From a virus, in IMG/VR virus record IMGVR_UViG_3300050821_002957, positions 271,192 to 335,191 of that record: a stretch of 64,000 bases of DNA, one strand, 5' to 3'. Made by a program: the position numbers and the translations under genes. Of the stretch, positions 14,103 to 62,798 are shown in pieces. Positions within the stretch are counted from its first letter, which is position 1, and every line of letters begins with the position of its first letter. The notes beneath the pieces are model-generated. The model saw only the letters and a list, made by a program, of their open reading frames with translations, made no database searches and was not told where the DNA came from.

Positions 14103-14190
14103 TTGGTGGGACGGGTGTGAGTCGAACACACAGGGTTCCAAGGAACATCCGCTTTACAGGCGGCTCTCGCTCCCTACGAGACTACCATCC
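14103..14190 (-). tRNA. tRNA-Tyr (anticodon GTA), type II with a long variable arm, CCA encoded
   Basis: Hand fold: acceptor GGGATGG/CCGTCCC, anticodon loop CTGTAAA, variable-arm stem GTTCC/GGAAC, T-arm GTGTG-TTCGACT-CACAC, discriminator A, CCA. Confidence 0.6.
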
Positions 14191-18519: not shown

Positions 18520-18593
18520 GAAACTAGAATAGCAAACCTACCCTACCATGTCAACAGTAGATGCATCTTTTTCTGGAAGGAATATTTTATCTA

Positions 18594-18624
18594 CCTCTTG
18601 ACATATTGACGGCTGGTGCGCTAT
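18594..18624 (+). promoter_or_regulatory. sigma70-like promoter
   Basis: It reads TTGACA-tattgacggctggtgcgc-TATGCTGG. The -10 context TATGCTGG is the same as in the promoter at 10139. Confidence 0.4.
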
Positions 18625-18685
18625 GCTGGTACTGTCAAAGAGAGTCCCATTTTCAACGACTTACGTCCGTTGATAAATACTCTCC

Positions 18686-19090
18686 ATGAAAACCTTCCTC
18701 GAATTTATCTTGACCGAGAATGCCATGTTACCGGGCGTTGCTGGCGTAATGAAACACCAACGGGACAATGGTTTAGCCAAGGTAGGTGTTCATCCCAATT
18801 TTGCTGCCATTAAGAAGCAGCGTGAAGATAGCATCAACAAAGTTGGCACCCATCCAAATTTTGCTGAAATCTTACGTCGGCGTCAAGCAGGTCAAATGTC
18901 GGAAGAAGAAATGAACGAACTGCTTGGTCTATTCAAAAAGAAAAACGATGCAAAACCCTCGCCGTTTGCCAAACCAAAAAACGCAATTGGACATGGTGAC
19001 AAGGCTTATCGCACGAACCACCATTATGGGAACGGTGACATCGAACCATCCACCGTTCCTATTTTCAAACCAACTTGGCAGAATCGTTAG
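18686..19090 (+). CDS. hypothetical protein with an internal duplicated motif
   Basis: The segments VGVHPNFAAIKKQREDS and VGTHPNFAEILRRRQ are repeated. Confidence 0.35.
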   Translation: MKTFLEFILTENAMLPGVAGVMKHQRDNGLAKVGVHPNFAAIKKQREDSINKVGTHPNFAEILRRRQAGQMSEEEMNELLGLFKKKNDAKPSPFAKPKNAIGHGDKAYRTNHHYGNGDIEPSTVPIFKPTWQNR

Positions 19091-19629
19091 AAACGTCTCG
19101 GACACGCTGGCGGCTTCGCACAATCACCGGGTCCACCATTGTCCTTGGTCACTTTTTTGTTGGGAACTTTCTTCGGCTTTTTGACCGGCGACAATTGATG
19201 TGCATCGAAGTATTGAACGTCAGTCAAAATGCCTTCATGCAGTTTTGATGATTGCAGACCGACTCGCTGTGACGACGTAAAAAATTTGGACAATGAAATC
19301 GCAACACCTTCAAAATCTGAAATGCTGTCTTTGTACGTGTCGCCGAGTACGATCATATCCGGCTCTTCTTCATATGAAATCACTGCGGCCCCAGGTTGTT
19401 CTTGGAGAAGCTGTTCGTCAATGTAGAATCCGTCCATCGGCCCACCGTCAGCCTTGAGACCCGGAGGCTGAATTGCCACTCGGACGCACGCATACAGGAA
19501 AGTTGTGCGAGAGACAGCGACACCTTTAAGTCCTGAAATGGGATCTTTGTATGTTCTGCCGAGCGTTGCTACTTCTGTCGCTGCGGTCTTCAAAACGTTT
19601 TCACGATCAATTGGTTTGGAGTTTGCCAT
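19087..19629 (-). CDS. hypothetical protein with a duplicated module
   Basis: The segments YKDPISGLKGVAVSRTTF and YKDSISDFEGVAISLSKF are repeated, and the C-terminal tail is basic. Confidence 0.35.
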   Translation of the reverse strand: MANSKPIDRENVLKTAATEVATLGRTYKDPISGLKGVAVSRTTFLYACVRVAIQPPGLKADGGPMDGFYIDEQLLQEQPGAAVISYEEEPDMIVLGDTYKDSISDFEGVAISLSKFFTSSQRVGLQSSKLHEGILTDVQYFDAHQLSPVKKPKKVPNKKVTKDNGGPGDCAKPPACPRRF

Positions 19630-19674
19630 GTGTCGAGAGTAACATGATGGCTATAGGTGTGTCAATAATTTTAA

Positions 19675-19762
19675 TGGCTGGAGGAGCAGGACTCGAACCT
19701 GCATATGAGCTTTCGCTACGACACATTAACAGTGTGCTGCCTTACCGTTAGGCGACCCTCCA
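19675..19762 (-). tRNA. tRNA with a GTT (Asn) anticodon loop but a long, type-II-like variable arm; CCA encoded
   Basis: Hand fold: acceptor TGGAGGG/TCCTCCA, D-arm GCCT-AACGGTA-AGGC, anticodon loop CTGTTAA, an 18-nt variable region with an AGC-GAAA-GCT hairpin, T-arm GCAGG-TTCGAGT-CCTGC, then G and CCA. Confidence 0.45.
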
Positions 19763-19783
19763 ATATAAATGGATGTATGGCAA

Positions 19784-20217
19784 ATTCACAGAAAGTAAAA
19801 GAATGGCGCAAAAGAACCAAACAACGAATGATTGATGCAATGGGTGGATCGTGTGTAGTCTGTGGCTACACTCGTTGTTCAGCCTCATTAGGATTTCATC
19901 ATCTCGATCCGAGCAAGAAACATTTTGGTTTCGGAGGTCTTCGTGCCAACCCAAAATCTTGGGAGAAGATCAGCGAAGAACTACGAAAATGCGTTCTGAT
20001 TTGCAATCGTTGTCACGGAGAAGTACATGATGGTATAACCATCATTCCCATTAATGCAAAACGGTACGACGAAAGTTATGCTCAGAAATTTGGAAGAAGA
20101 AAAATGGCTCCGGGGACAGGACTCGAACCTGTAACATCCGCTTTAACAGAGCGGCGCTCTACCATTGAGCTACCCCGGAATGAGGTTGCTTCTTTGGTTA
20201 GGGTCACGCCGTTTTAA
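19784..20217 (+). CDS. HNH homing endonuclease
   Basis: Motifs CVVCGY...HHLDP...CNRCHGEVHDG are present. The gene lies between two tRNA genes and its 3' end overlaps the antisense tRNA at 20105-20179. Confidence 0.65.
20105..20179 (-). tRNA. tRNA-Asn (anticodon GTT), CCA encoded
   Basis: Hand fold: acceptor TCCGGGG/CCCCGGA, D-arm GCTC-AATGGTA-GAGC, anticodon arm CCGCT-CTGTTAA-AGCGG, T-arm ACAGG-TTCGAGT-CCTGT, discriminator G, CCA. Confidence 0.65.
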
Positions 20218-20260
20218 AGCGTGACCTACGTATTGTAGGTTGTGTAAGTCATCACAATTC

Positions 20261-20268
20261 TATTTATA
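20261..20268 (-). promoter_or_regulatory. TATAAATA late-promoter-like motif within a conserved 28-mer
   Basis: The 28-mer GTCATCACAATTCTATTTATACCACGGT recurs at 22351-22378. Both copies lie upstream of minus-strand tRNA genes. Confidence 0.35.
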
Positions 20269-20520
20269 CCACGGTGTTTTGAAACTGTCAACCTTTTATT
20301 TTACATTGACTCCGATCATTCGTCATACCGATCCATGAATTCTCTAACGTCATCAATACGAATTACAAACAAAATGATGAACAGAGGACCGCCGATGCAA
20401 AATAACACTCTGGCAGTTTGCTCCATGTCCATTATCATCTCAAAGAACCCCGCAAGAAAAAGCAAAATGAATGCCAGCCGCCAGCAATTCTTCCAGTTGA
20501 TCTTCACATAATCGAACATG

Positions 20521-21456
20521 TTACACCACCAAATCTTTGGGCAAGCGTTCAGTCCGTGCAATCTCTTCTGCGGTCGGTTTGATCACATTGCCGACGATTC
20601 CACCGAAGATTGCTCCGACCGTATCTGTGTCGCCACCGACCTCAATGAAGCTGTTGATGCAGGATGCGAACGAAAGACCTTTTTCCAAAGCCTGATGTGC
20701 CTGCCATAATGCAAAAGGAACTGTATCGACTGCCGTTACTTCTTTGCCGTTTCCAACCTTGCCAATTATTCCCCAATTGGTTTCGTTAAATGCACCCTCA
20801 CTGGCGACCCATTCGATGCGATCACGAAGTTCCCCTGATGGTGTGTATTTGATGATGTTTAACCAGAAGTCTTCCTCAGGTCTTCCATAAGTTACGTTTG
20901 CTGCGGCTATGGCGACCGCTATCGAACCGGCAATAGCATCGACGTGATAATGGGTCACTTCGGCAGATAGACGTGCTTCTTGCGCTACAAGGCCATAGTC
21001 AGGTCCAAAGTGTGCGCCAATGACAGCATCACGCATTGCCGATCCGTTGCCTTTTGAGCCGATGCCCGGTCCCCACCAATTCTTGCTATGCTCAAGCCAA
21101 TTGTCGGAGTCATAGCTATAGGTCGTCAACAAACCACGAGTGCCACGCCCATAACCACGCTGAGGATCAACATGAAAATTACGAGCTAATTCCTGAGCGA
21201 GTTCGAGTTGATTGATCGTATTGAATCGGTACAAAGTTCTAACGACACCAATACCGACATGTGTGTCGTCTGTCCAGGGATAGAGAATGTCAATTTTTGT
21301 GATCCCTCGTTCAGTGGCGACATTCCCAGCCTTGTAATATTCAGCCGGAAGAATCTTCATCTGATTTTCGCCTGCTGCATCGCCTACCGACAAGGCAAGA
21401 AGCGAAAGATAAGTTTCTTTCTTTTTGTACTGCATCGGAGCAAGACAGGGTGTCAT
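20521..21456 (-). CDS. ADP-ribosylglycohydrolase (ARH/DraG family)
   Basis: Several ARH motifs are present: LSVGDAAGE, PWTDDTHVG, GNGSAMR and GGDTDTVGAIFGGIVG. Confidence 0.8.
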   Translation of the reverse strand: MTPCLAPMQYKKKETYLSLLALSVGDAAGENQMKILPAEYYKAGNVATERGITKIDILYPWTDDTHVGIGVVRTLYRFNTINQLELAQELARNFHVDPQRGYGRGTRGLLTTYSYDSDNWLEHSKNWWGPGIGSKGNGSAMRDAVIGAHFGPDYGLVAQEARLSAEVTHYHVDAIAGSIAVAIAAANVTYGRPEEDFWLNIIKYTPSGELRDRIEWVASEGAFNETNWGIIGKVGNGKEVTAVDTVPFALWQAHQALEKGLSFASCINSFIEVGGDTDTVGAIFGGIVGNVIKPTAEEIARTERLPKDLVV

Positions 21457-21463
21457 ATTTCAC

Positions 21464-21676
21464 CTACTTGGTCGGTTTGTGCCAACCATATGCATGTTGA
21501 GCGGTCTTTGGCTCATATCCTAGAACGAGGTTACAGTTGGCAATACATTCGTCAAGATGACCGTCGCCTTTGTGAGTTGGATCTTGCAAAAATTGAAGTG
21601 CATGACGAATTGCTTGGCGTGCAGATCGAGCTTCGTTTTGCAGACGTTGAATTTGTTCTTCTATAGTTTCTACCAT
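21464..21676 (-). CDS. small hypothetical protein
   Basis: 70-aa ORF. Confidence 0.3.
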   Translation of the reverse strand: MVETIEEQIQRLQNEARSARQAIRHALQFLQDPTHKGDGHLDECIANCNLVLGYEPKTAQHAYGWHKPTK

Positions 21677-21999
21677 GTCTTAGTGTTTGTCCTCCACCAC
21701 CCAAACAGATAGCATACCACGGCGTAGATAATTGTCCATTCACCAGCAGTGAGAAAGAATGTGCCGCATCCTATCGTAGGAGTATCGAATGACAAGTTTG
21801 CAAAGAAGGCTTTTCCAAGACAAACAGCGAGACCGCCAAAATAAACAGCGGCAAAGAAGAGTTCACTTGGTCGAGGTACGGTGATATTGGGCCACTTCAT
21901 ATCCACAATGTTCGCACCGATCACCAGGGAAGTCAAGTTTTGCGCCTTGATGTAGATGAGCTTCTTGATTTGGATTGTCGGGCGTGCAGATAGTTTCAA
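21670..21999 (-). CDS. small membrane protein
   Basis: Hydrophobic helices in 109 aa. Confidence 0.3.
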   Translation of the reverse strand: MKLSARPTIQIKKLIYIKAQNLTSLVIGANIVDMKWPNITVPRPSELFFAAVYFGGLAVCLGKAFFANLSFDTPTIGCGTFFLTAGEWTIIYAVVCYLFGWWRTNTKTW

Positions 22000-22101
22000 T
22001 GCCGGTAAACTTTGTGTTTGGATCGAAACTGAAATTTGGATCTAATTTGTAAATCATAGCAAGAAGTATATAGCACTTCTAAGCCAATGAAATTAAGGTT
22101 T

Positions 22102-22175
22102 TGGCAGGAGTGGTAGGAGTTGAACCCACGCTAAAGGTTTTGGAGGCCCTTGTGCTACCGTTACACCACACTCCT
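22102..22175 (-). tRNA. tRNA-Trp (anticodon CCA)
   Basis: Hand fold: acceptor AGGAGTG/CACTCCT, D-arm GTGT-AACGGTA-GCAC, anticodon loop CTCCAAA, T-arm GTGGG-TTCAACT-CCTAC, G and CCA. Confidence 0.6.
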
Positions 22176-22191
22176 GTGATGAGGAAGATTA

Positions 22192-22267
22192 TGGCCGCTG
22201 GTTCCAGTTACGCTCTGGACTCTTCTGTTCTTCAGACAGACGCTTTCACTAGATTAGCTTACCAGCG
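22192..22267 (-). tRNA. tRNA-Phe-like (anticodon loop CTGAAGA) with a non-canonical T-loop
   Basis: Acceptor CGCTGGT/ACCAGCG, then G and CCA. The anticodon arm is TCTGT-CTGAAGA-ACAGA. The T-arm is TCCAG-AGCGTAA-CTGGA and lacks the TTC motif. Confidence 0.45.
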
Positions 22268-22288
22268 GTGTTGTGCTTTGAGAGAGGC

Positions 22289-22327
22289 GCAACGACTGCT
22301 GGTTTCAACAGCAGTCGTTGCGCCCCG
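22289..22327. other. perfect 16-bp inverted repeat (hairpin with a 7-nt loop)
   Basis: It reads GGCGCAACGACTGCTG-gtttcaa-CAGCAGTCGTTGCGCC. It lies between the conserved TATAAATA 28-mer and the tRNA-Phe-like gene. Confidence 0.7.
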
Positions 22328-22369
22328 GTGGTAAATCGCCAATATGTAAAAGTGCGTGTCATCGTAATT

Positions 22370-22377
22370 CTATTTAT
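22370..22377 (-). promoter_or_regulatory. TATAAATA late-promoter-like motif (second copy of the conserved 28-mer)
   Basis: GTCATCGTAATTCTATTTATACCACGAT lies upstream of the tRNA-Phe-like and tRNA-Trp genes. Confidence 0.35.
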
Positions 22378-22553
22378 ACCACGATCATTGCTGTCTGTCA
22401 ACAATGAAATTCTGTGTCGTGAACAAATGGTTCCTCGGATGGGAGCGGTATCATAGGCAGTGATAATCCCACCTGATTCCCCGGCTCACGACAAAATAAC
22501 AAGGCCACTCGGAAGTAGCCAAGATCCCTTGGTACACATGGTAACAGGGTCTA

Positions 22554-22793
22554 CTATTCGTGAATGATTTCGCCTATCACTCGTTCTGGCATTAGCTTCT
22601 CAGGCGGGACACTTCCATTCATAAGGTCAACCATGCGCTGTGCTTGAGCTAGAGTGTGAAAGGTTCCATACGGTGTGACATGTGCTCCACCGTCGCCAGA
22701 ACCTACTTCAACCAAATCATACTTCGTTTCCGTCTTCGGCCAAATCTCGTACCTAATTTTCTGTTCGGTCGATGACTTGTTGACGAATTCCAT
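22554..22793 (-). CDS. small hypothetical protein
   Basis: 79-aa ORF. Confidence 0.3.
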   Translation of the reverse strand: MEFVNKSSTEQKIRYEIWPKTETKYDLVEVGSGDGGAHVTPYGTFHTLAQAQRMVDLMNGSVPPEKLMPERVIGEIIHE

Positions 22794-23735
22794 AAATGTG
22801 TGTCGGTGTTAAGGCACACCGAGCAGGCCGCAAGATTTTGTTACTGATCAATACCTGCTAAGAACCAGGATGTTTAAGAACTTATCCTTGAGAAAGCTCC
22901 GTTGTAGGCGACACGGCTTCCCTGAGAGTCAGAGTTACTTCAGCTACTCCTGATGGTATGGTGACTCAGCTACCCCGACTTTTTAGTGATCGGCTCCATT
23001 CCGGTATTCGATTCGGCAACGACAGATTCCGACTCTGCAACGTTCTGCTTCTTTTCGATGAGAAGCAAAAATCATAAAAACTCAAAATGACCAGAGGACC
23101 CTCAGCAGTGAGCGCAGATCCCACGTTCGCATACAAGCGTCAATGACAAGTTTTATCCAACGAGCCATTGTCTTGTACGTTGGCTCACCGTCGAGTGCGC
23201 TATCCAGTTCGACACACTCACCTGCGGTTCTAATGACTTTCGTCTCCCGCTGGCCCTATCATCGCCTCACACTTCCGTGTGTTTCAACATCCTGGTCATC
23301 TCAAGGGCGACAGCCTTGCGGCCACGACACCCCACCAGCTTTTTTACTGTGTACTGATCACAGGGAGAGCTAGAACGACTTTCGCCGCCCCACACCTACC
23401 GCCACTGGTCGAGACTTCTACATGCGACCAGCCATGTCGCTAAAAGGGGCACTACGAGTAGATGCCCTCCACCACGTTGTTCTTTTACGTCCAACAACGA
23501 AACGACTTAGACCCATAACTCTGACCGGAAATCAGAACTATGATCCACACTCCCCGGTGGAAGCCGGGAAGACTTTGAATGTGAACTAATAATTGACAAG
23601 GGATTATAGCCCCGAAGGACCATTTCACCATTTGAAAGATAACCCTCATCTTCCGGCTCACATCACGAAATACGGCTGCTTGTCCTACCATTAGACGACC
23701 GGATCTGCCGACGCTTTACGCCATGAGAGCAGATT

Positions 23736-24060
23736 GGACTCCGACCGGGACTCGAACCCGGATTTCTCAGCTAGACGAATGACGGAGCATAGTGCGCTCT
23801 ACGTCGGAATTGGTGGATACACATGGGAATTGAACCCATAACCTTCTCGGTGCAAGCGAGTTGCTCTCCCAATTGAGCTAGTGACCCATAACTTTGTACC
23901 TCGAACAAATAAGTATCAGAGGGCTTGTCATTAGGAAAGATAACCCTCTAAATCCGGCTCGAAGCACTACAAAACTTTTGGTGGATCGCCAGGGATTTGA
24001 ACCCTGCTGTTATCCTCGGTGCAAGCGAGGCAAACACCCCAAGCATTTCCGCAACCCACA
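23736..24060 (-). pseudogene. three degenerate tRNA-like elements (tRNA pseudogenes or fragments)
   Basis: One element has a T-arm CCGGG-TTCGAGT-CCCGG with the D-arm GAGC/GCTC but an unfoldable anticodon region. A second has an Ala-like loop CTTGCAC with an acceptor of only 5 of 7 pairs. A third has a clean 3' half (anticodon arm, T-arm, GCGATCC-A-CCA) with no matching 5' acceptor strand. Confidence 0.35.
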
Positions 24061-24278
24061 TTTAAATAGCACGAACAAATAGCGGTAGAAGACTGATAGG
24101 AGACTGCATTTAACGCACCCTCGGATTGGATACCGATCAGATACGCTTCAAACTCCCCTCCTCAAAGTTACGGGCGTCTTTTACTACACGTACAACGAAC
24201 TGCTTTGTGCCCACCAAATACTGCCGGTGAACTTTGTCATGGTTAGGTAACCTTCCAACCAGCGGCTCGTGCTATGTC

Positions 24279-24340
24279 GAAACAGAACGAAACAGAACGA
24301 AACAGAACGAAACAGTGCTCAACGATGCGAAACAGTGCGT
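24279..24340. repeat. 10-bp tandem repeat (CGAAACAGAA)x3 followed by two CGAAACAGTG units
   Basis: Directly visible as cgaaacagaacgaaacagaacgaaacagaacgaaacagtgctcaacgatgcgaaacagtgcg. Confidence 0.8.
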
Positions 24341-24421
24341 TAGGTCAAAGATCGTATTCTTTATCTATACACGCTACAGTTTGCTTTCAATAGCGCCTTT
24401 GACTCTTTCAGTCTAACATCC

Positions 24422-24691
24422 TTAGTATGGGATGTCAAGTGCCACGAACATAATAATTTCATCTTCGTCTTTTTTGCGACGAGCAGCAGCTTCTTTCTCA
24501 GTCAACACCAGAGGAGACGGATTGCCTTCGACTTTGATATTCACTGATAAACCTTGCTGGAGCCATCCAGATACTTCATCGGGCGGCGTCTCGACAAATG
24601 CCTGATCACACGCCTTCTGAATTTCGACATTGCGTATTGCAGCAAGCGGTTTGCCGGATGGCGTCATGATGTCTACGTTACAAAGAAGCAT
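24422..24691 (-). CDS. hypothetical protein
   Basis: 89-aa ORF. Confidence 0.3.
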   Translation of the reverse strand: MLLCNVDIMTPSGKPLAAIRNVEIQKACDQAFVETPPDEVSGWLQQGLSVNIKVEGNPSPLVLTEKEAAARRKKDEDEIIMFVALDIPY

Positions 24692-24693
24692 GT

Positions 24694-25023
24694 TTATCTA
24701 CCAACTGCTACGGCTGAAATTCCGATAACACTTTCAATATTGTACAACAGACGAGCGGCTTCTGACAATTCTGAGCCGGTGCGATCCAGTGTAGCATGGA
24801 CGCCGGTCGGATCAGAATCAGCTTTTGAGTCATCGTCTTCTCCGGTGTATTGAAGAACATCTAACACCGTTTTTAAGCGACGAGCCAACATCCTAGCCAA
24901 TTGCAAATTTGCATCCGAAGAAGATTGAATTGTCGTTGGTTCGTGGTTCTTTTCTGCTGGACCGTCAACAACTAATCCAAACTTCTCTAATAAAACTTTG
25001 TTTCCTTTCTTTCCTGTATTCAT
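24694..25023 (-). CDS. hypothetical protein
   Basis: ORF trimmed to the internal Met (MNTGKKGNK) so that it does not overlap tRNA-Ile. Confidence 0.3.
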   Translation of the reverse strand: MNTGKKGNKVLLEKFGLVVDGPAEKNHEPTTIQSSSDANLQLARMLARRLKTVLDVLQYTGEDDDSKADSDPTGVHATLDRTGSELSEAARLLYNIESVIGISAVAVGR

Positions 25024-25029
25024 AATTTT

Positions 25030-25105
25030 TGGTTGGCCCAGATGGAATCGAACCATCAACCTCAGAATTATCAGTTCTGCGCTCTACCAATTGAGCTATG
25101 GGCCA
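25030..25105 (-). tRNA. tRNA-Ile (anticodon GAT), CCA encoded
   Basis: Hand fold: acceptor TGGCCCA/TGGGCCA, D-arm GCTC-AATTGGTA-GAGC, anticodon arm CAGAA-CTGATAA-TTCTG, T-arm GATGG-TTCGATT-CCATC, discriminator A, CCA. Confidence 0.7.
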
Positions 25106-53602: not shown

Positions 53603-54261
53603 CCTATCGTTGTTATCTCATCACGAATACAGTGAATCGCAAGCAATACGTCGGGTACACCAAGTATTCACTCATCACTCGTCTAACGGCACACTTTTCT
53701 AAAGCTAAGACTGGTAGCCCCTCGACACTTCATGCAGCGATGCGGAAGTATGGCCGGGAGTCATTCAAGATTGAATTACTGTCCTTATCTAGAAGTCTTG
53801 ATAGAGTAAGGTTCCGTGAACGGGGTTGGATCAAGACTTATAATACTTTCGACCAAGGATATAACATGTCCATTGGTGGAGAAACGTCGGCTCCTTCCAC
53901 TAAAGTCTATTCTGAAGTGCGTCGTCAAAAAATAGCTGCTAGAACGAAAGCATATTGGGCATCAGAAGAAGGTCAAGCAAAACGAAGGCGTCTCCAAATA
54001 CGAAATAGACGTATTCAATCTAATCGGATGAAGGTTCGTTGGGCAAATCCTACTGAAGCTCAACTGAAGGCACGTCGTCCAGGCCGACCCAAAGGTTCAA
54101 AAAACATCTGGCCGCTTCCATTTAAGTGCAAGCCAGTACAACACAACGATAAAATTTACAACAGCGCCAAAGAAGCCGCCGTAGAGTTTGGAGTAGTCGT
54201 TAGGACAATCCATGCTTGGTGTGCGGCCCATAAGAATGGCTGGAGACATCCTTGGAAATAG
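53599..54261 (+). CDS. GIY-YIG homing endonuclease
   Basis: Motifs YRCYLITNTVNRKQYVGYT...R...YNMSIGGE are present, with a basic C-terminal region. Confidence 0.75.
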   Translation: MTYRCYLITNTVNRKQYVGYTKYSLITRLTAHFSKAKTGSPSTLHAAMRKYGRESFKIELLSLSRSLDRVRFRERGWIKTYNTFDQGYNMSIGGETSAPSTKVYSEVRRQKIAARTKAYWASEEGQAKRRRLQIRNRRIQSNRMKVRWANPTEAQLKARRPGRPKGSKNIWPLPFKCKPVQHNDKIYNSAKEAAVEFGVVVRTIHAWCAAHKNGWRHPWK

Positions 54262-55346
54262 CATTGATCGGAGACACACACGCAGGGCATAAGAACGATA
54301 GCCTTCTGTTTCAGGACTACTTCAAGCGCTTTTACGATCAGGTGTTTTTTCCTGAATTGGAAAAGCGTAGTATCTCAACCATTATCCATGTGGGGGACGT
54401 ATTTGACCGCCGTAAGTATGTCAATTTTCATATTCTTCAGCGAACGAGAGTTGATTTCTTGGAAAAATTGGCCGACTACGATACCCATTTCCTTTGTGGG
54501 AATCATGACGTTTATTTTAGGGACTCCAATGAGACAAATGCCTTAAGAGAGCTTGTCTATGGACGCTATTCTAAGATTCACATCTACGAAGAGCCACAGG
54601 AGCTTGTCATTGATGGTCTAAAAATCCTGCTTATGCCGTGGCTCAATCCTACGAACATGGACACTGGTCTCAGCATGATCGAACGTAGCACTGCATCGGT
54701 TTTGATGGGTCATTTAGAAATTGCTGGGTTCAAATTTGATCAGACTCAGGTGTGTGAGCATGGAATGGACAAGAACATTTTCGGCAAATTCAAGAAGGTG
54801 TTTTCCGGTCACTTCCATCATGCCTCAGAAGAAGGTCCGATCCGTTATCTTGGTGCGCCCTACGAATACACCTTTGCAGATCTGAACGATCCCAAAGGCT
54901 TCTACATCTTTGACACCGATACTTTAGAGCTTGAGTTCATTCAGAATCCAGAGCGAATGTTCTATCGAGTGATCTATGACGACCGGGAAGAAGATGCCGC
55001 CGAGAAGTTGCTGGGAATGGACTTCAGTGAGTTTGAAGGCAAGATGGTTCGGATCATTGTGCCATACAAGAACAATCCGGTCCTGTACGAGCAGTGGATC
55101 GACAAGCTGATTCAGAACAATCCATCTGAGTGGTCCATCAAGGAACAACTGTCTCTTGAAGTGGATGGCGAAATCGAAGAGATGATGTTCGAGGAATTCA
55201 AGGTTGAAGGTGGTCAGGTCGTTCATGGCGGCACCGCTGAGATCCTGGACAAGTACATTGATGCTCTAGAAACCGATGTGAATAAAGACCGGCTTAAGGG
55301 TGTGCTGAGAGAATTGTTGGTCGAGGCTACGGCGTCTGTAAGTTGA
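54252..55346 (+). CDS. 47: recombination endonuclease subunit gp47 (Mre11/SbcD-like)
   Basis: It carries the T4 gp47-like motifs IGDTHAG, HVGDVFD, GNHD, SGHFH and DLNDPKGFYIFDTDT. Confidence 0.85.
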   Translation: MEIALIGDTHAGHKNDSLLFQDYFKRFYDQVFFPELEKRSISTIIHVGDVFDRRKYVNFHILQRTRVDFLEKLADYDTHFLCGNHDVYFRDSNETNALRELVYGRYSKIHIYEEPQELVIDGLKILLMPWLNPTNMDTGLSMIERSTASVLMGHLEIAGFKFDQTQVCEHGMDKNIFGKFKKVFSGHFHHASEEGPIRYLGAPYEYTFADLNDPKGFYIFDTDTLELEFIQNPERMFYRVIYDDREEDAAEKLLGMDFSEFEGKMVRIIVPYKNNPVLYEQWIDKLIQNNPSEWSIKEQLSLEVDGEIEEMMFEEFKVEGGQVVHGGTAEILDKYIDALETDVNKDRLKGVLRELLVEATASVS

Positions 55347-55376
55347 CAAAAACCTGCTCCGTGGTGTAATAGGTCT

Positions 55377-55634
55377 ATGAGTAAGATGCCTGACGTGCTC
55401 CGGGAATTTTTGTGGTCTTTGACAGAAGCCGAAGCGAACGAAATTCTGGACTGGATGGCAGCTACTCCACAGGTTGCACGAGGCAGTCAAATCACGGATA
55501 TTGTGTACCGAGAGCCGATCAAGCAGGTTACGCAAGTGAATTATCCATATGTGCCTGTCGCCGACCCATACTACAGTCATGAGTGTGTTCAGTGTTGGTT
55601 GCCGAAGTACTTGTGCATGTGTCCAGGAAAATAA
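55377..55634 (+). CDS. small hypothetical protein
   Basis: 85-aa ORF. Confidence 0.3.
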   Translation: MSKMPDVLREFLWSLTEAEANEILDWMAATPQVARGSQITDIVYREPIKQVTQVNYPYVPVADPYYSHECVQCWLPKYLCMCPGK

Positions 55635-55635
55635 T

Positions 55636-56076
55636 ATGAGTCATCAAACATACGTCGCCGGGTTCCTCTTCGACAGCACCTATGAGCACGTCGCCCTGAT
55701 CAAAAAAGAGAAACCAGCATGGCAGAAGGGAAAGTTGAATGGTATCGGCGGAAAGATTGAGCCGGGTGAAACTTCTATTGATGCCATGCGCCGAGAGTTC
55801 AGGGAAGAGACCGGAGTTGACATTCAAGAATGGAACCAATACATTCAACTTTCGGGTGATGAATTTGCTGTCGAATTCTTTTACGCCATCGGTGATCCTT
55901 TCCTAGTCCAGACGACTACGGAAGAAGTGGTGAACGTCTATGCCACCGGCTACTTGCCTCAGCTTGATACTATTCCAAATTTGCAGTGGCTCATCCCAAT
56001 GGCAATGACGATGGAATTTGAATCGGCTGGAAAGTTTTTGATGAAAGAGATCCCAAAAGTCCAGGTAGGAAATTAA
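55636..56076 (+). CDS. Nudix hydrolase
   Basis: The Nudix box is GGKIEPGETSIDAMRREFREETGV. The ATG was chosen at 55636. Confidence 0.7.
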   Translation: MSHQTYVAGFLFDSTYEHVALIKKEKPAWQKGKLNGIGGKIEPGETSIDAMRREFREETGVDIQEWNQYIQLSGDEFAVEFFYAIGDPFLVQTTTEEVVNVYATGYLPQLDTIPNLQWLIPMAMTMEFESAGKFLMKEIPKVQVGN

Positions 56077-56438
56077 TATGGAATGTAAACACACCGACGA
56101 ACACATTTGCGACTGTCCGTGTCATGCGACGACTGAGACCGGCGAACCAGCCGTCCTCCACATGATCCCTTGCTGTGACATCTGTAGCGTCTGCAAGCGG
56201 TACATCGACCAGTACAAGAGCGTATCCATCAACGCATGAGAACATTCCGAGTGCGGGGAGATCGCAAAGACTGTACGTATGATTTATGGAAGCACCTGCC
56301 TATTAACGATGGTGACACATTACAATTTGATGATGGTGACTCTCAATTTATAGCTGGCTATGGCTGGAAGTTCACACCAATAAATCGTAATTTTGTAGTT
56401 TCGGTTCCGTTTCACATCATCCAACAACTTCAACAACA

Positions 56439-56876
56439 ATGACAATGCGCCGATGCCCTGCATGTAAACAGGATAAAGAAGATACGTTGGATAACTTTTA
56501 TAAGAGAACTGGAACGAGTAGAGTACATACCTACTGTAAACCATGTTATGCAGCGAGAGGAGTGGCTTATAGAAAGACAGTCAAAGACACCCCGGAGTTT
56601 AAATCGAAACGCAGATTTGAGCAAAGAAAACGTAGGATGGGAATCGATAAAGATACTTTTTGGAAGATGTTTGAATTTCAATCGGGTATTTGTCCTATAT
56701 GTAAATTATCGTTAGAAGAAGGTACAGGAAAGGTTCATGTAGATCATGATCACAAGACTGGGAAAATACGAGATTTATTGTGTCGCCGATGCAATATCAT
56801 GATAGGGTTGGCACAAGACAATCGTGAAATTCTAGCGGCAGCGATTCGATATTTGGAGAAACATGATTGTATTTAA
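56439..56876 (+). CDS. Endonuclease-VII-family nuclease (second copy), probably a homing endonuclease between genes 47 and 46
   Basis: It carries CPACKQ...CKPCY...CPICKLSL...VHVDHDHKTG...LCRRCN. Confidence 0.6.
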   Translation: MTMRRCPACKQDKEDTLDNFYKRTGTSRVHTYCKPCYAARGVAYRKTVKDTPEFKSKRRFEQRKRRMGIDKDTFWKMFEFQSGICPICKLSLEEGTGKVHVDHDHKTGKIRDLLCRRCNIMIGLAQDNREILAAAIRYLEKHDCI

Positions 56877-58794
56877 AGAACTGTCTTGGCGAAATTTTTT
56901 GAGCACTGGTAATGTGCCAACAGTAATCCGGCTCAATACATCACCAACCACACTTATTCTTGGATATAACGGTTCTGGCAAATCAACTTTTCTTGATGCA
57001 ATTTGTTACGCACTGTTCAAGAAGCCATTCCGCAAGATCAAGAAAGATCAGATCGTCAACACTATCAACGGCAGTGATTGTGAAGTCAGGATTGATTTCT
57101 CTATTGGCACCCATGACTATACTGTGCGCCGGGGAATCAAGCCTGACTTCTTTGAGATCATCATGCCGGATGGAGAACCACGTAAGAAGGCCGCAGGAGC
57201 CAAGGACGATCAGGCATTCTTGGAAGAAGACATTCTGAAGGTCAACTACGAATCGTTTACTCAGGTCGTCATTCTCGGTAATGCTGCCTACACGCCTTTC
57301 ATGCAGTTGAAGGCAGCACAACGGAGAGAATTCATCGAGCACATTCTAGACATCGGTGTCTTCAGTAGCATGAACGAAATTCTGAAGAAGAAGCAGACCA
57401 CGGTCACAACTTCTTTGGCAACGCTCAACAAAGACATTGATCTTCAAAAAGAAAAGCTCACTCTGGTCAAGGGCTTCATCGACAAGTTGGAAGCAGATCG
57501 AAAGAAGGCCAATAAAAATATCATCGCTCAGATGGCCGAACAGAATGCCATCATCGACGAATTGGAGCCGGTCGCTGATAATCTACAAAAAGAAATCACG
57601 GCGTTGCATGAACAGTTGCAATCGAAGACAAAGGAATTGAACGCTGCTTCGGTGAAAGAAATTGATGCACTTACCGATCAGATGGAAGATAGTCTGGATG
57701 CGCTTCGGGAAAAGATCGTCGATACGTCTGCCATTGAGAACCGGCTTCGTACTATGTCTCCACTGCGTACCGGCATTCTGAACAACATCAAGAATACCAA
57801 GGCGTCTATTTTATTTTACGAAGACAATGACTCCTGCAAGACCTGTAAGCAAGGTATTGAACAACAGTTTCGGTCGAACATCATTGAGCAAAAGCAAAAA
57901 CAGATTGAAGAGTACGAAGTCGGTCTCGCCAAGTTGGACAAAGAAGTAGAAAAGCAACAAGCACGTCTTACCGAACTGAACGAAAGCAATCGTAAGTTAG
58001 AAGAGCAAATTAGTAAGGCTCAATCGGCACATCAAGTCACTGTCCGTAAGATGATGCATGAGAATACGGCGAACATTGCGGAGATGACGGCAGAGTTACA
58101 GGCTGATCTCAAATTTCTCAATGCCAAACATAGCACACACTCTGCAACCCTTAGTGGCGCACGTCAACTCGTAAAGAAGATGGAGGCCGACAAGAAGGCA
58201 GCGGAGTCATCCAAGAACATCGACGAACAGTACAAGAAACGTGACGAAATTGTAGAAAAGGCCGATAAGCTAGAATCGACCAAGGCAGATGCAATCGAGA
58301 CCCGGCATTTTTATGAGATCGCCGCCGTCCTGTTGAAAGATTCCGGCATCAAGGCAGCGATCATCAAGCAGTATTTGCCGATGATCAATAAGCTGGTCAA
58401 TAAGTATCTGGTCGAGCTTGACTTTTATTTGCTGTTTGCCCTGGACGAAAATTTCGACGAGACATTCAAGAGTCGGCATCGGGACACGCTTCAGTATTAT
58501 TCATTTTCTGAAGGTGAGAAACTCCGTATCGACTTAGCGTTGCTGTTTTGTTGGAGAGACATTGCCAGGATGAAAAATTCCTGTGCTTGTAATTTGCTAA
58601 TTTTAGACGAAGTAATAGACGGTTCAATGGATCACAATGGAACCGATTTTTTCATCAAATTGATCAATGAGCTTGGAACTGGTTCTAATGTATTCGTGAT
58701 TTCGCACAAACAAGACTCGTCGCTAGATAAGTTTAAAGATGTTTTGCGTTTTGAAAAGGTGAAAAATTTCAGTCAGTTGGCGGTGAATCTATGA
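56863..58794 (+). CDS. 46: recombination endonuclease subunit gp46 (Rad50/SbcC-like ATPase)
   Basis: Walker A is GYNGSGKST and a long coiled coil follows. The segments SGIKAAIIKQYLPMINK, FSEGEKLRIDLALLF, LILDEVIDGSMD and VFVISHK are alignable to T4 gp46. Confidence 0.9.
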   Translation: MIVFKELSWRNFLSTGNVPTVIRLNTSPTTLILGYNGSGKSTFLDAICYALFKKPFRKIKKDQIVNTINGSDCEVRIDFSIGTHDYTVRRGIKPDFFEIIMPDGEPRKKAAGAKDDQAFLEEDILKVNYESFTQVVILGNAAYTPFMQLKAAQRREFIEHILDIGVFSSMNEILKKKQTTVTTSLATLNKDIDLQKEKLTLVKGFIDKLEADRKKANKNIIAQMAEQNAIIDELEPVADNLQKEITALHEQLQSKTKELNAASVKEIDALTDQMEDSLDALREKIVDTSAIENRLRTMSPLRTGILNNIKNTKASILFYEDNDSCKTCKQGIEQQFRSNIIEQKQKQIEEYEVGLAKLDKEVEKQQARLTELNESNRKLEEQISKAQSAHQVTVRKMMHENTANIAEMTAELQADLKFLNAKHSTHSATLSGARQLVKKMEADKKAAESSKNIDEQYKKRDEIVEKADKLESTKADAIETRHFYEIAAVLLKDSGIKAAIIKQYLPMINKLVNKYLVELDFYLLFALDENFDETFKSRHRDTLQYYSFSEGEKLRIDLALLFCWRDIARMKNSCACNLLILDEVIDGSMDHNGTDFFIKLINELGTGSNVFVISHKQDSSLDKFKDVLRFEKVKNFSQLAVNL

Positions 58795-58994
58795 AAATGA
58801 AAGAATGTCCGACATGTGAAGGTGAGAAGACAGAGCCTTGTGAATTGTGTGATGGCAGCGGAACCTGTCAGCACTGTAATGATGGTCAGTGTCCCGATTG
58901 CTACGGCGACGGATACCAAGACTGTTTTGAATGTGACGGGGAAGGTCAGGTCGAAGATGACGATGCACCAGAGGAAGACGAAGAAAGTGAATGA
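58791..58994 (+). CDS. Cys-rich protein with five CxxCxGxG-type repeats and an acidic tail
   Basis: It carries CPTCEGE, CELCDGSG, CQHCNDGQ, CPDCYGDG and CFECDGEG. Confidence 0.4.
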   Translation: MKMKECPTCEGEKTEPCELCDGSGTCQHCNDGQCPDCYGDGYQDCFECDGEGQVEDDDAPEEDEESE

Positions 58995-59265
58995 ATGCCT
59001 TGATTTTCGAGATAAGCCACTGAAGAAAGGCGATTGGGTGATTCGGGCCGTCAGCTATGGGTCAACCAGCGCATGGCTTGTCTATTCTCGTCTTGAAGAA
59101 GATCCTCAACCAAATCCGAAAAAGGGTGGCTGGGCCTTTTGGATCAGGACTTATAGGCACGGTATTTTTGGTGGACGAGGTAAGGCAGAAAATCATACCA
59201 CCATGATTCGTATTGAAGAATCTGAAGTTCCAAAAGAAATTTTAGAAGCGGCATCGAAGTTATAA
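58987..59265 (+). CDS. hypothetical protein (GTG start inferred)
   Basis: The ORF continues in frame 1 after the Cys-rich gene, and no in-frame ATG lies downstream of that stop. Confidence 0.25.
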   Translation: MNECLDFRDKPLKKGDWVIRAVSYGSTSAWLVYSRLEEDPQPNPKKGGWAFWIRTYRHGIFGGRGKAENHTTMIRIEESEVPKEILEAASKL

Positions 59266-59273
59266 GTACGGAT

Positions 59274-60611
59274 ATGACCCTACAAGAGAAAATTGAAACC
59301 AGGACTGCTCGGATCGGAATCATTGGTCTTGGGTATGTCGGCTTGCCTCTCGCCGTCGAATTTGGAAAGGCCGGATTTCATGTACATGGATTTGATCTTG
59401 ACGAGGAAAAGGTTACCAACATCAAGACTGGATTTAATTATATTCCTGATGTCGATCCAGACGAACTTCGTAAGCTGTGTGATGCACATTTTGAAAACGT
59501 CAATCAAAGACCACAACTGGGCGGAAGTTTGACGGCATCTTCAGTCTTTACTCCTTTAGCTGACATGGACGCAGTGATTATTTGTGTTCCTACTCCGCTC
59601 AAAAAGACAAAAGATCCCGATATTCAATACATTGTTGCGGCCTGTGAATCGATTGCACGACATCTTCATTCGCCGATGCTGATTTCTCTTGAATCCTCGA
59701 CCTATCCTGGGACCACGGATGAATTGATGTTGCCGATGTTCCAACGAGAAGGATTTGAAGTCGGCAAGGATTTCTTCTTGTGCTTCTCGCCGGAAAGAGT
59801 CGATCCGGGCAACAAAGATTTTCATACCAAAAACATTCCCAAGGTCATCGGCGGTATCACTCCAGAATGCACTAGACTGGGCCAACTGTTGTATGAAACT
59901 GCCATTCAGACGATCATTCCGGTCCAAGGCACACGCACGGCAGAGATGGTGAAGCTGCTTGAGAACACATTCCGCATGGTCAATATCGGATTGGTCAACG
60001 AACTGGCGATCATGTGCGACAAGATGAACATCAACATCTGGGAAGTGATCGATGCCGCAAAGACCAAGCCATTCGGGTTCATGCCTTTCTATCCAGGTCC
60101 AGGTCTTGGTGGTCATTGTATTCCTATTGATCCGTTTTATTTTTCCTGGAAGGCCAAGCAATATGGATGTGAACCACGCTTCATTGAGACAGCAGGCTAC
60201 GCCAACGCTCAGATGCCTCACTATGTCGTCCAGAAGGTCCAGGACGCATTGAACAAAGAGAAGAAGGCTATCAATGGGTCCAAGATTCTGATCCTAGGAA
60301 TGGCGTACAAACGTGACATTGACGACGTGCGTGAATCCCCGGCGCTTGACGTTGCTCATTTACTATTGGACAAGGGCGCAGAGCTTCAATATTTCGACAT
60401 GTACATTCCTAAAGCTAGGGTGAATGGATATCATCTGGAAAGCCTTAGAGTTGATCAAATTGACGATGCCGTAGATAACGCAGATTGCATCGTCATTACC
60501 ACCGATCACAGCTACATGGATTACAAAGATGTGGTCGAGCACTGCAAACTGATTGTCGATACCAGGAACGCTTTGAAAGGATTGAATGATCCTAAAATTG
60601 TTCGGATATGA
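59274..60611 (+). CDS. nucleotide-sugar dehydrogenase (UDP-glucose / UDP-N-acetylmannosamine dehydrogenase family)
   Basis: It has an N-terminal Rossmann motif (IGIIGLGYVGLPLAVEF) and a central catalytic region with a GGHCIP-type Cys. Length is 445 aa. Confidence 0.75.
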   Translation: MTLQEKIETRTARIGIIGLGYVGLPLAVEFGKAGFHVHGFDLDEEKVTNIKTGFNYIPDVDPDELRKLCDAHFENVNQRPQLGGSLTASSVFTPLADMDAVIICVPTPLKKTKDPDIQYIVAACESIARHLHSPMLISLESSTYPGTTDELMLPMFQREGFEVGKDFFLCFSPERVDPGNKDFHTKNIPKVIGGITPECTRLGQLLYETAIQTIIPVQGTRTAEMVKLLENTFRMVNIGLVNELAIMCDKMNINIWEVIDAAKTKPFGFMPFYPGPGLGGHCIPIDPFYFSWKAKQYGCEPRFIETAGYANAQMPHYVVQKVQDALNKEKKAINGSKILILGMAYKRDIDDVRESPALDVAHLLLDKGAELQYFDMYIPKARVNGYHLESLRVDQIDDAVDNADCIVITTDHSYMDYKDVVEHCKLIVDTRNALKGLNDPKIVRI

Positions 60612-61465: not shown

Positions 61466-61705
61466 ATGGGATACCACAAAGTAGAGATTAAAAGAGGCGT
61501 TCTTGGAGAGATCAGTAAAATCCAGGAAGAGCTTGACGAACTACAAGACGCTGAAGGGCAGCATGTTCGTCTTTTGATGTTGTGTGAACTGGCGGATTTG
61601 GTAGGAGCCATTGACCACTATCTCAGAGTAAATTTTCCAGATTGGGGCATTAACGATTTGCATCATATGGCATTGCTTACACAAGAGCACAAAGAGGGGA
61701 GATGA
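61466..61705 (+). CDS. MazG-like all-alpha NTP pyrophosphatase (small form)
   Basis: It carries LGEISKIQEELDELQDA...ELADLVGAIDHY. Confidence 0.4.
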   Translation: MGYHKVEIKRGVLGEISKIQEELDELQDAEGQHVRLLMLCELADLVGAIDHYLRVNFPDWGINDLHHMALLTQEHKEGR

Positions 61706-62064
61706 GTAGAACAATTAACGATCACGTAGTACAGGGCGATACTGCTCGACAATTAATCATTGAAGTCTTGGATGAACCCGGACAAGGCGGCGCAAATCAT
61801 TTGTACGCTATTAGGAATGGCCTAGATTTTTTGTGCAGCGTCAGATTTCAAAATGGTCCGATTAAGGAATTTGGTGTGAATGGCATCACTCAAGAAGCGT
61901 TGTTGGCAATCGTCATCGACCGGCTGCGTTGTTTTCAGGCAGGACCGTTCGCCGGGGAACACAATGCCATTGCTCTTGAAAAGTGTGAAGATGCCCTGAA
62001 TCACTTACAGGCACGAACCAGAGATCGTATTGCTCGTGGTGTCGAAGGAACAAGCACAAAATGA
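61702..62064 (+). CDS. hypothetical protein
   Basis: 120-aa ORF. Confidence 0.3.
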   Translation: MSRTINDHVVQGDTARQLIIEVLDEPGQGGANHLYAIRNGLDFLCSVRFQNGPIKEFGVNGITQEALLAIVIDRLRCFQAGPFAGEHNAIALEKCEDALNHLQARTRDRIARGVEGTSTK

Positions 62065-62798
62065 TGAAACACTGCATGATCGATTATGGCTTGGTAGGAC
62101 AGGCTCAGACGTTCTATAAGGCGTTGGGATACATTAACCTCGACTTACCTTGGTTGGTCAGTCCGCAGGCGATTGTAGCCACACTACCGGCTGGCAAGAA
62201 GATATTTCAAAGCAATTTCGGATGTCTGGTTGGTTCCGGCGAGCAGAGCTTTATTCAGATGATGATGGATGGTACTTTGAAACCCGGAAAGTATCAGACT
62301 ACGACGCCTTGTTTCCGTGATGAAGAACCTATTTCCGAATTTTCACGGTTGAATTTTTTGAAGACAGAATTGATTTGGTACATGCCGGATGTCGAATTGA
62401 AAGTAGCATACGATAAAGTTTTGAACGATGCTCTTTCGTGCTTTTTTGAAATTTCTCATGCTGACACATTGGATGCGGTTCAAACATCTGAAGGATTTGA
62501 CATTTGCTGCAACGGAATCGAGCTAGGAAGCTACGGCGTGCGGAAAATGGGCGAACATACCTGGGTCTTTGGGACCGGCCTTGCAGAGCCACGATTCTCC
62601 ATGACTGTAAATCGTCGTCTCACTCCCGAAATCTTGGAAAAGCAGCGTGCAGATGAATTGGAACAAGAACGTCTAGAGCATGAAGCAATGCATCTTGCTG
62701 GTCATGCACATTCTCACGATCCAAACGGGATTTTGTTGGATCACAATCATGAACCGATCAGCGAGCAGGAAGAGACTTCCGTCGCACAAGAATCTTAA
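62061..62798 (+). CDS. class-II aminoacyl-tRNA-synthetase-like catalytic core paralogue (AsnA/EpmA/HisZ-like)
   Basis: It has a motif-2-like segment (TPCFRDEEPISEFSRLNFLKTE) and a motif-3-like segment (GTGLAEPRFSM), with no anticodon-binding domain. A His-rich tail follows. Confidence 0.4.
   Translation: MMKHCMIDYGLVGQAQTFYKALGYINLDLPWLVSPQAIVATLPAGKKIFQSNFGCLVGSGEQSFIQMMMDGTLKPGKYQTTTPCFRDEEPISEFSRLNFLKTELIWYMPDVELKVAYDKVLNDALSCFFEISHADTLDAVQTSEGFDICCNGIELGSYGVRKMGEHTWVFGTGLAEPRFSMTVNRRLTPEILEKQRADELEQERLEHEAMHLAGHAHSHDPNGILLDHNHEPISEQEETSVAQES

Follow-up and report, generated by a model that had tools for sequence, protein, structure and literature searches.

What does a class II aminoacyl-tRNA synthetase (aaRS) catalytic core do in a bacteriophage when it carries none of the parts with which such enzymes choose a tRNA? 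The question is posed by a 64,000-nucleotide stretch of viral DNA (the window; positions 271,192 to 335,191 of IMG/VR virus record IMGVR_UViG_3300050821_002957), in which a plus-strand open reading frame (ORF) of 245 codons, running from ATG to TGA at 62061-62798, encodes such a protein, here called the core. The original prediction, made from the sequence alone, described it as a stand-alone class II catalytic core that could modify a translation factor or a small molecule. We find that it is accompanied by a small protein, here called the partner, that probably belongs to the HisE/MazG nucleoside triphosphate (NTP) pyrophosphohydrolases. The reading we favour, with a probability of about 0.5, is that the core is the ligase half of a two-protein phage enzyme, in which an aminoacyl-AMP-forming core and an NTP-handling partner would act together on a nucleotide-type acceptor.

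The gene lies far beyond what chance would produce, because its product matches the phrog_4806 profile with E = 9.6e-43 (residues 6-186 against profile positions 4-187 of 190), has 530 homologues in a search of 5.8 billion proteins and belongs to a family for which an exhaustive HMMER scan returned 1,673 clusters (50% identity) at E <= 1e-3, 1,241 of them at E <= 1e-30. One of the homologues is identical and lies on a 405,631-bp contig, the same protein having already been called on public contigs. The ORF and the sequence elements on which the original prediction leaned are all there: CFRDE at residues 84-88, FLKTE at 99-103, GTGLAEPRF at 171-179 and HLAGHAHSHDPNG at 211-223. For the 245-residue protein by itself, Pfam returns only tRNA-synt_2 (15.9 bits, below the cut-off of 25), NCBIfam only sub-threshold fragments (aspartyl-tRNA synthetase, AspRS, PRK00476, at 15.4 against a cut-off of 443) and a phmmer search of PDB sequences no relevant match, and no family member tested attains the curated cut-offs of Pfam or NCBIfam for seryl-tRNA synthetase (SerRS) or any other aaRS. 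Public labels in PHROGs, GenBank and RefSeq are inconsistent, ranging over histidyl-, seryl- and aspartyl-tRNA synthetase, 'RNAP alpha CTD protein' (RNA polymerase alpha C-terminal domain) and hypothetical protein. Among 50,697 phage genomes in public deposits, 276 carry the family, phi92-like coliphages and T4-like phages of Acinetobacter baumannii being examples, and its carriers are all large phages that typically encode tRNAs.

An AlphaFold2 model of the core, built with a 61-sequence alignment, has a predicted local distance difference test (pLDDT) score of 90.3, with values of ~95-99 over residues 6-186, and displays the antiparallel beta-sheet flanked by helices of class II aaRSs. Foldseek places the catalytic domains of pyrrolysyl- and seryl-tRNA synthetases among its PDB matches at E about 1e-9, with GenX and AsnA as further structural neighbours; neither a BPL/LPL or GNAT fold nor a loss of the motif-2 arginine, which would have spoken against the class II assignment, was seen. 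The absence of a tRNA-binding domain was likewise confirmed, as neither the sequence, the model nor the family alignment contains an N-terminal or an anticodon-binding domain, and the protein begins just 8 residues ahead of the motif-1 helix.

Conservation, counted in an alignment of 354 collected homologues, follows the catalytic site (Table 1). In motif 1, P30 is kept in 346 sequences and W31 in 353, and in the S-G-E-Q loop, whose SerRS and AspRS counterparts we take to contact the alpha-amino group of the amino acid, S59, E61 and Q62 are kept in 352, 353 and 350. The predicted motif 2 of the FRDE...EF...E type held up well (P83 353, C84 353, F85 340, R86 346, K101 348 and E103 351) and aligns with motif 2 of both SerRS and AspRS. 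The strand expected to bind Mg2+ and substrate is equally constrained (D147 350, E154 347, G156 353, S157 353, Y158 350, G159 350 and R161 346), as is motif 3 (G171 337, T172 352, G173 349, P177 351 and R178 352), which is present as predicted except that its spacing is G-x-G-x-x-x-x-R, one residue longer than the G-x-G-x-x-x-R first proposed. Judged by its modelled fold, its motif-1 proline and its motif-2 and motif-3 arginines, the core is a member of the class II aaRS catalytic-core superfamily, and the alignment indicates that both ATP-binding arginines, the residues singled out for inspection, are under strong purifying selection. Their near-invariance favours an active adenylate-forming enzyme over a degenerate scaffold, and we regard such activity as very probable.

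This constancy also bears on the idea of a HisZ-like sensor, in which the core would bind an amino acid, an aminoacyl-AMP or an uncharged tRNA without net catalysis and allosterically control the pyrophosphatase as its effector. HisZ has lost the catalytic arginines and acids, which in the core are almost invariant; it also needs HisG, and neither a hisG gene nearby nor a conserved hisG-like neighbour was found. A complex of core and pyrophosphatase is foreign to the histidine pathway of HisZ, HisG and HisE, and SerRS outranks HisZ when a second family member is used as the query. HisZ itself was accordingly rejected as an identity, and we consider the sensor improbable.

The main new result lies next door. 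When 80 related viral contigs were searched with every neighbouring protein of the window, the sole conserved neighbour of the core was the small protein of phrog_6408 encoded just upstream, which was present in 80 of 80 loci and always on the same strand, 55 times upstream and 25 times downstream, most often overlapping the core gene by 1-4 nt. It also accompanies the core in 25 of 27 loci, mostly contigs of metagenome-assembled genomes, from 185,579 species genomes and in six of six annotated phages (phi92, Cronobacter phage CR8, CcrColossus, Morganella phage MP1, Lazarus and Phab24), although these locus sets overlap slightly and include near-identical contigs, and their counts are thus not fully independent. 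A reciprocal tblastn search of the 50,697 phage genomes with the partner closely reproduced the per-genus counts of the core (Escherichia 113 versus 112, Caulobacter 13/13, Pectobacterium 10/10, Cronobacter 8/8 and Microcystis 8/8). Acinetobacter appears as an exception in these counts because its partner is a longer version: in Lazarus and Phab24, the overlapping upstream genes encode 207 and 246 residues with an N-terminal partner domain (hhalign 99.4%, E about 1e-21). The two-gene module is nearly restricted to viruses, of very diverse hosts that include Proteobacteria and Cyanobacteria, and is also found on contigs binned with bacteria of the Candidate Phyla Radiation (CPR) and DPANN archaea.

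In 54 of the 354 collected homologues, both domains lie in one chain, a count that is enriched as one of the homologue searches used a fusion as its query; in an unbiased profile search, 10 of the top 150 representatives were fusions. Such single chains occur in many lineages; 53 run core-partner with only ~6-8 residues between the two domains (for example, ...AEPRFSQVLSKTPKGYS...), and one runs partner-core (P0292). Modelled with AlphaFold2 on 47 natural fusions (pLDDT 95.4, predicted template modelling score 0.88), the fusion is a single compact two-domain unit, with three helices in the partner part after an extended but ordered segment, and no solved chain aligns over more than ~204 of the 265 residues of this model. 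That the genes occur in two orders and the fusions also in two, and that translation of the pair is coupled, speaks as a whole for a physical and functional complex, which we hold to be highly probable from gene arrangement and modelling. The earlier interpretation thus survives in part: the class II core without a tRNA-binding domain stands, and so does the observation that nothing is fused to it in this phage, but it is not stand-alone, since it has an obligate partner gene 356 nt upstream. The neighbouring partner genes that the original prediction suggested seeking in related phages do exist.

The PHROG label of the partner family is 'unknown function'. Our ORF finder lists the gene from 61394, and the conserved protein starts with M(61466)GYH behind GAAGGAAT; the start is therefore most plausibly the GAAGGAAT-ATG at 61466, giving the N-terminus MGYH found in most homologues. 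Across 38 partners, Y3, H4, I8, G11, G14, S17, K18, E21, E22, E25, E41, D44, A48 and T72 are invariant, and they include an EExxE-x15-ExxD pattern, carried in the fusion model by helices 199-215 and 218-239. A passage of PMC9503650 that cites Moroz et al. 2005 gives EExxE...ExxD as the metal-binding signature of the all-alpha NTP pyrophosphohydrolases (MazG, HisE and dimeric dUTPases). Profile matches point the same way, all of them below threshold: PRA-PH (HisE) in 34 of the 38 partners (best E = 1.6e-4) and MazG in 8 with Pfam, and the phosphoribosyl-ATP diphosphatase model TIGR03188 of NCBIfam in 22, below its curated cut-offs. A partner profile searched against the PDB returned MazG-like 1vmg, HisE 2a7w and HisIE 7bgm within the top eight at E = 0.16-0.8, and the orthologues in phi92 and Lazarus had been annotated by their depositors, independently, with a MazG-like fold. 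Membership of the partner in the HisE/MazG all-alpha NTP pyrophosphohydrolases is on this evidence probable.

Searches disagree on which synthetase the core resembles. Against PDB sequences, the family profile finds SerRS first (6hdz, E = 1e-4) and one AspRS, and hhalign gives a probability of 91-92% for Escherichia coli SerRS and 76% for E. coli AspRS. The SerRS alignment pairs LVGSGEQS with LIPTAEVP, TPCFRDE...FLKTE with TPCFRSE...FDKVE, GTGLAEPR with GSGLAVGR and, at low stringency, IELGS with REISS; T172 and E103 of the core are SerRS-like. On the class IIb side (AspRS, AsnRS and AsnA), the CFRDE of motif 2 is identical in core and AspRS, and the D-x6-E-x6-R strand FDICCNGIELGSYGVR aligns gap-free to YDMVINGYEVGGGSVR of E. 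coli AspRS (D475/E482/R489), where the position of R161 is what we take to be the side-chain-carboxylate-binding site. Among 61 members scanned with Pfam, 39 matched the Asp/Lys/Asn family (tRNA-synt_2), 25 the Phe family and 12 the Gly/His/Pro/Ser/Thr family. We read the core as a deep-branching class II core that is structurally nearest SerRS, and with subclass signals in such conflict its amino acid is not assignable by homology. The histidyl-tRNA synthetase of the PHROG and RefSeq labels was rejected, as HisRS is not the nearest relative and its anticodon-binding domain is missing.

Nearness to SerRS by profile and structure raises the prospect of a true tRNA synthetase of minimal size, seryl or other, that aminoacylates tRNAs of host or phage for translation; annotations in GenBank and PHROG take this for granted, and a paper on the RXM phage treats the gene as SerRS. 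Canonical SerRS, however, has an N-terminal coiled-coil arm for tRNA-Ser that the core lacks, along with any anticodon-binding domain, and compared with the E. coli enzyme the core has a motif-2 loop 6 residues shorter and no counterpart of the ~24-residue hairpin before motif 3. An arm-deleted E. coli SerRS reportedly activates serine but is very poor at charging tRNA. The carriers are large, tRNA-encoding phages and the window itself has seven tRNA genes, yet none is for Ser, nor for Asp or His; two of them, tRNA-Tyr and one tRNA-Asn, are unusually long at 88 nt each. Some phages do place nucleic-acid-related domains beside the core, namely an alpha-CTD-like domain in phiCbK-like phages and, in phi92, a gene for a YqeY-like protein of the tRNA-binding type; the latter is found in no other locus and was rejected as a general tRNA-binding helper. 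Finally, the core scores below every curated SerRS or aaRS cut-off, and a minimal synthetase leaves its obligate and often fused NTP-pyrophosphatase unexplained. We therefore regard this alternative as unlikely.

The class IIb likeness, in turn, suggests an enzyme of the AsnA or EpmA type, whose acyl-adenylate would serve to amidate some small molecule or to modify a protein of the host, for example elongation factor P (EF-P). AsnA and EpmA share the architecture of a class II core without a tRNA-binding domain, AsnA like the core having no anticodon-binding domain, and both AsnA and GenX are structural neighbours; the D-x6-E-x6-R strand, CFRDE and the class IIb Pfam matches agree with this. 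Truncated synthetases with non-canonical acceptors are known: EpmA/GenX lysylates EF-P, Bll0957 represents the amino acid:carrier-protein ligases and GluQRS glutamylates tRNA queuosine. The core is ~100-140 residues smaller than any of these, none of which has a pyrophosphatase partner, and GluQRS is moreover a class I enzyme whereas the core is class II. It is not EpmA/GenX/PoxA, a LysRS-like core of ~325 residues that acts on EF-P with EpmB, nor a Bll0957-type ligase, as no carrier-protein gene is adjacent to it in 81 loci or among 149 flanking proteins. Unlike in the EpmA, Bll0957 and GluQRS settings, genes related to carrier proteins, EF-P or queuosine are not linked to core loci, and we judge an AsnA- or EpmA-type function to be very unlikely.

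What we favour instead is the two-protein enzyme. Core and partner would form a hetero-oligomer, in which the core would activate an amino acid as acyl-AMP with the residues that class II enzymes need for ATP-Mg2+ and the alpha-amino acid, all of which it retains, and the partner would bind or hydrolyse an NTP moiety. The leading substrate candidate is a small polar residue such as Ser, which going by the sequence we consider possible, if on the low side of even, and the AspRS-like R161 would leave room for an acidic substrate. Adenylate chemistry in the core next to an NTP-handling partner suggests that a nucleotide-type acceptor is the target: a free nucleotide, or the terminus of an RNA such as the CCA end of a tRNA or a 5'-triphosphate. 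A tRNA picked out by its anticodon or variable arm would not be. Neither the 81 loci nor the 149 flanking proteins hold a third conserved gene (carrier protein, HisG, EF-P/EpmB or tRNA-binding factor), and for an acceptor that is universal and supplied by the host, a nucleotide or RNA end is the most plausible choice; we give it roughly even odds.

Besides the truncated synthetases GluQRS, EpmA and the amino acid:carrier-protein ligases, which are precedents for non-canonical acceptors, two known systems offer partial parallels. In Z-genome phages, the genes of MazZ and PurZ similarly link an NTP pyrophosphohydrolase, small and of the MazG type, with a ligase that depends on ATP and takes an amino acid as substrate, and we take the pair as a precedent for such a pair in phage nucleotide metabolism. 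PurZ, however, is a PurA homologue without the class II aaRS fold, MazZ-PurZ is accompanied by DatZ and DpoZ, which are not linked to the module here, and there is no evidence of modified DNA in the present carriers. In Ap4N synthesis and Np4 capping of the LysU type, the group that attacks a class II aminoacyl-AMP is a terminal phosphate, either that of an NTP or that of a 5'-triphosphate RNA, and a partner holding an NTP-like moiety beside the adenylate site would fit such chemistry; the parallel is one of analogy, as LysU is a full-length synthetase without a pyrophosphatase partner.

Several points weigh against the reading of a two-protein enzyme with a nucleotide-type acceptor. The HisE/MazG assignment of the partner consists of sub-threshold hidden Markov model matches and a motif, and hhalign of the partner gave no significant alignment with HisI or MazG of E. 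coli, each taken as a single sequence. Two of the 27 genome loci have no detectable partner, both at contig ends. Per-member Pfam matches favour class IIb over the Ser-containing family (39/61 against 12/61), the occasional joining of the core with an RNAP alpha-CTD-like domain in one chain and the YqeY-like neighbour in phi92 fit a conventional tRNA substrate equally well, and we found no biochemical data in the literature for any family member.

In the window, the module is split by a third gene, whose 120-residue product is a clear homologue of Thoeris anti-defence 1 (Tad1) by its sequence matches: phmmer finds 8kbb_A (E = 4.2e-17) and 7uav_A (E = 2.3e-16) in the PDB over residues 20-120, and PF24729 (Acb2_Tad1_hairpin) is recorded for it on the identical contig. 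Tad1 acts as a sponge with which phages soak up the signalling molecules of Thoeris. Across the trio, the plus strand showed no promoter- or terminator-like signal, and the ATGA overlaps at both junctions together with the uninterrupted strand suggest that partner, Tad1 homologue and core are probably translated from one message. The three would then probably be co-expressed as accessory host-takeover or counter-defence functions. Tad1 adjoins the module in none of the 80 related loci and was rejected as a general neighbour; in the closest relative (L004, IMGVR_UViG_3300047539_000049), partner and core overlap directly.

A counter-defence role would have the pair make, trap or destroy a nucleotide-amino acid conjugate, or repair toxin-modified tRNA 3' ends, and it overlaps with the two-protein enzyme as its possible biological purpose. 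The translationally coupled Tad1 inside the module speaks for it, as does the behaviour of the module as an autonomous cassette with highly variable flanks that is essentially restricted to viruses of very diverse hosts, and an aminoacyl-AMP pocket joined to a pyrophosphatase could suit ligands in which an amino acid is linked to an ADP-ribose-like or nucleotide moiety. That said, the Tad1 adjacency occurs in one lineage only, scans with PADLOC and for anti-defence families gave no matches, and the module looks stably inherited through whole phage subfamilies, not sporadic. As an explanation in its own right, we think counter-defence has a small chance of being correct.

The His-rich C-terminal tail, which the original prediction had noted after the catalytic core, is present, but it is not a family feature: it is shared only with the three closest relatives (P0002, P0003 and P0004) and absent from the rest of the family. 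Its pLDDT falls from ~88 at a predicted helix to ~57-66 towards the end. All four tailed proteins keep HExxHxxGxxH, the exact metzincin zinc signature, which accounts for a sub-threshold match to archaemetzincin; a tail of ~60 residues does not have the length of a protease domain, an identity we rejected, and from its motif it may bind metal.

Table 1. Features of the window and of related loci referred to in the text (window coordinates unless a locus is named).
Feature	Position	Strand	Basis or remark
Partner gene, putative 79-aa HisE/MazG-like all-alpha NTP pyrophosphohydrolase	61466-61705	+	phrog_6408, E = 1.4e-24
Predicted metal-binding signature of partner, E21-E22-x-x-E25 ... E41-x-x-D44	61526-61597	+	EExxE-x15-ExxD
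Inserted 120-aa Tad1 homologue between partner and core	61702-62064	+	ATGA overlap with both neighbours
Core gene, mini class II aaRS-like	62061-62798	+	ORF; phrog_4806 match; AlphaFold2 pLDDT 90; stop codon 62796-62798
Conserved catalytic core, aa 6-186	62076-62618	+	class II aaRS fold
Motif 1 region, aa 24-34, YINLDLPWLVS	62130-62162	+	aligns to SerRS and AspRS motif-1 strand
S59-G-E61-Q62-S-F loop	62235-62258	+	aligned to SerRS T-[AS]-E-[VQ] loop and AspRS S-P-Q-L-F loop
Motif 2, aa 83-104, PCFRDE...FLKTEL, with ATP alpha-phosphate arginine R86	62307-62372	+	aligns to SerRS TPCFRSE...FDKVE and AspRS CFRDE
Mg2+/substrate strand, aa 147-161, DICCNGIELGSYGVR	62499-62543	+	D147, E154, S157, R161
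Motif 3, aa 171-180, GTGLAEPRFS, with ATP-binding arginine R178	62571-62600	+	aligns to SerRS GSGLAVGR
Lineage-specific tail, aa 187-245	62619-62795	+	predicted helix 189-212, then disorder
H207-E-x-x-H211-x-x-G214-x-x-H217 in tail, aa 207-217	62679-62711	+	
Upstream block: SbcD-like and SbcC-like nuclease subunits, NUDIX protein, endonuclease VII	54252-60611	+	calls on identical contig
67-aa Cys-rich ORF	58791-58994	+	
UDP-sugar 6-dehydrogenase	59274-60611	+	
Seven tRNA genes: Tyr, Asn x2, Trp, Ala x2, Ile	14104-25105	-	
YqeY/GatB-tail-like protein, phage phi92 gp195	L084 7595-8029		PF09424, E = 5e-7; directly downstream of module
Alpha-CTD-fused core	L001 3758-4612; L017/L027 5758-6624		Caulobacter phages CcrColossus, CcrPW
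Partner with N-terminal extension	L013 5175-6002; L028 5072-5977; L065 5049-5954		jumbo-phage contigs
Partner with C-terminal extension	L118 3336-3959; L119 3259-3999		Acinetobacter
Partner with in-frame TAA	L004 5759-6004		TAA at 5852

Beyond the partner, little around the core is shared. When ORFs of 81 loci were clustered, the next most frequent neighbour family occurred in at most 10, and a PHROG census of the 149 flanking proteins turned up nothing beyond a scattering of ribonucleotide reductase, RNA ligase and polynucleotide kinase. From the block upstream of the module in the window, the SbcC-like protein and the dehydrogenase alone were seen conserved, and only in the closest relative. 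In that relative, an in-frame TAA stands in the partner gene at a codon that is nearly always Gln (CAA) elsewhere in the family; an error in sequencing, pseudogene status or recoding of the stop codon could each account for it.

Both proteins also occur in extended forms. Partners on three jumbo-phage contigs carry an extra N-terminal domain of ~200 residues with a conserved H-x-H-x-Y, and Acinetobacter partners add 125-160 residues at the C-terminus. In phiCbK-like phages, a ~80-residue RNAP alpha-CTD-like domain (PF03118, E = 2.7e-7) is fused N-terminal to the core, which explains the odd 'RNAP alpha subunit CTD' annotations. Other family members have large N- or C-terminal extensions (P0190, 443 residues; P0166, 320; P0139, 297; P0236, 300) or Cys-rich, zinc-ribbon-like ones (P0043, P0130 and P0145). 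The extra partner domains and several of the core extensions gave no match in Pfam or the PDB, and those of the first four proteins gave none in Pfam. Three records labelled 'Campylobacter phage' (H83, H96 and H112; MG065689, MG065650 and MG065656; ~146-151 kb) match both module genes with identity and E-values equal to those of phi92-like and Phapecoctavirus-like coliphages, and their host labels may be wrong.

As the family already stands in PHROGs, GenBank and RefSeq, its fold assignment is not new. Our literature search found no paper that characterises the aaRS-like protein or describes its pairing with a pyrophosphatase; in the genome paper on the RXM phage, 'SerRS' is filed with protein metabolism and the 'MazG' genes near it with nucleotide metabolism, with no link drawn between them. 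The obligate module of a mini-synthetase and a pyrophosphatase thus appears not to have been described before. For annotation, it means that these proteins are to be read not as tRNA synthetases with the means to choose a tRNA, but as the companion of a MazG/HisE-like pyrophosphatase in an obligate pair, and it defines a compact unit of two genes, or of a single fused gene, that is easy to express.

Whether the pair is an unrecognised, virus-specific two-component enzyme that applies aaRS adenylate chemistry to a nucleotide-type substrate is a more far-reaching claim, and one that we consider doubtful. If it were true, the pair could build or destroy an amino acid-nucleotide conjugate, cap or repair an RNA end (for instance, the CCA end of a tRNA that a toxin has modified) or disarm an immune signal derived from a nucleotide, and would represent a new class of host-takeover or counter-defence function in phi92-like, Acinetobacter T4-like, phiCbK-like, Ma-LMM01-like and many jumbo phages. 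The gene for a Tad1 sponge inside the module of this jumbo phage is a concrete lead on its role, and solving the reaction could reveal a non-translational viral aaRS chemistry in nucleotide or RNA-end metabolism or in counter-defence.

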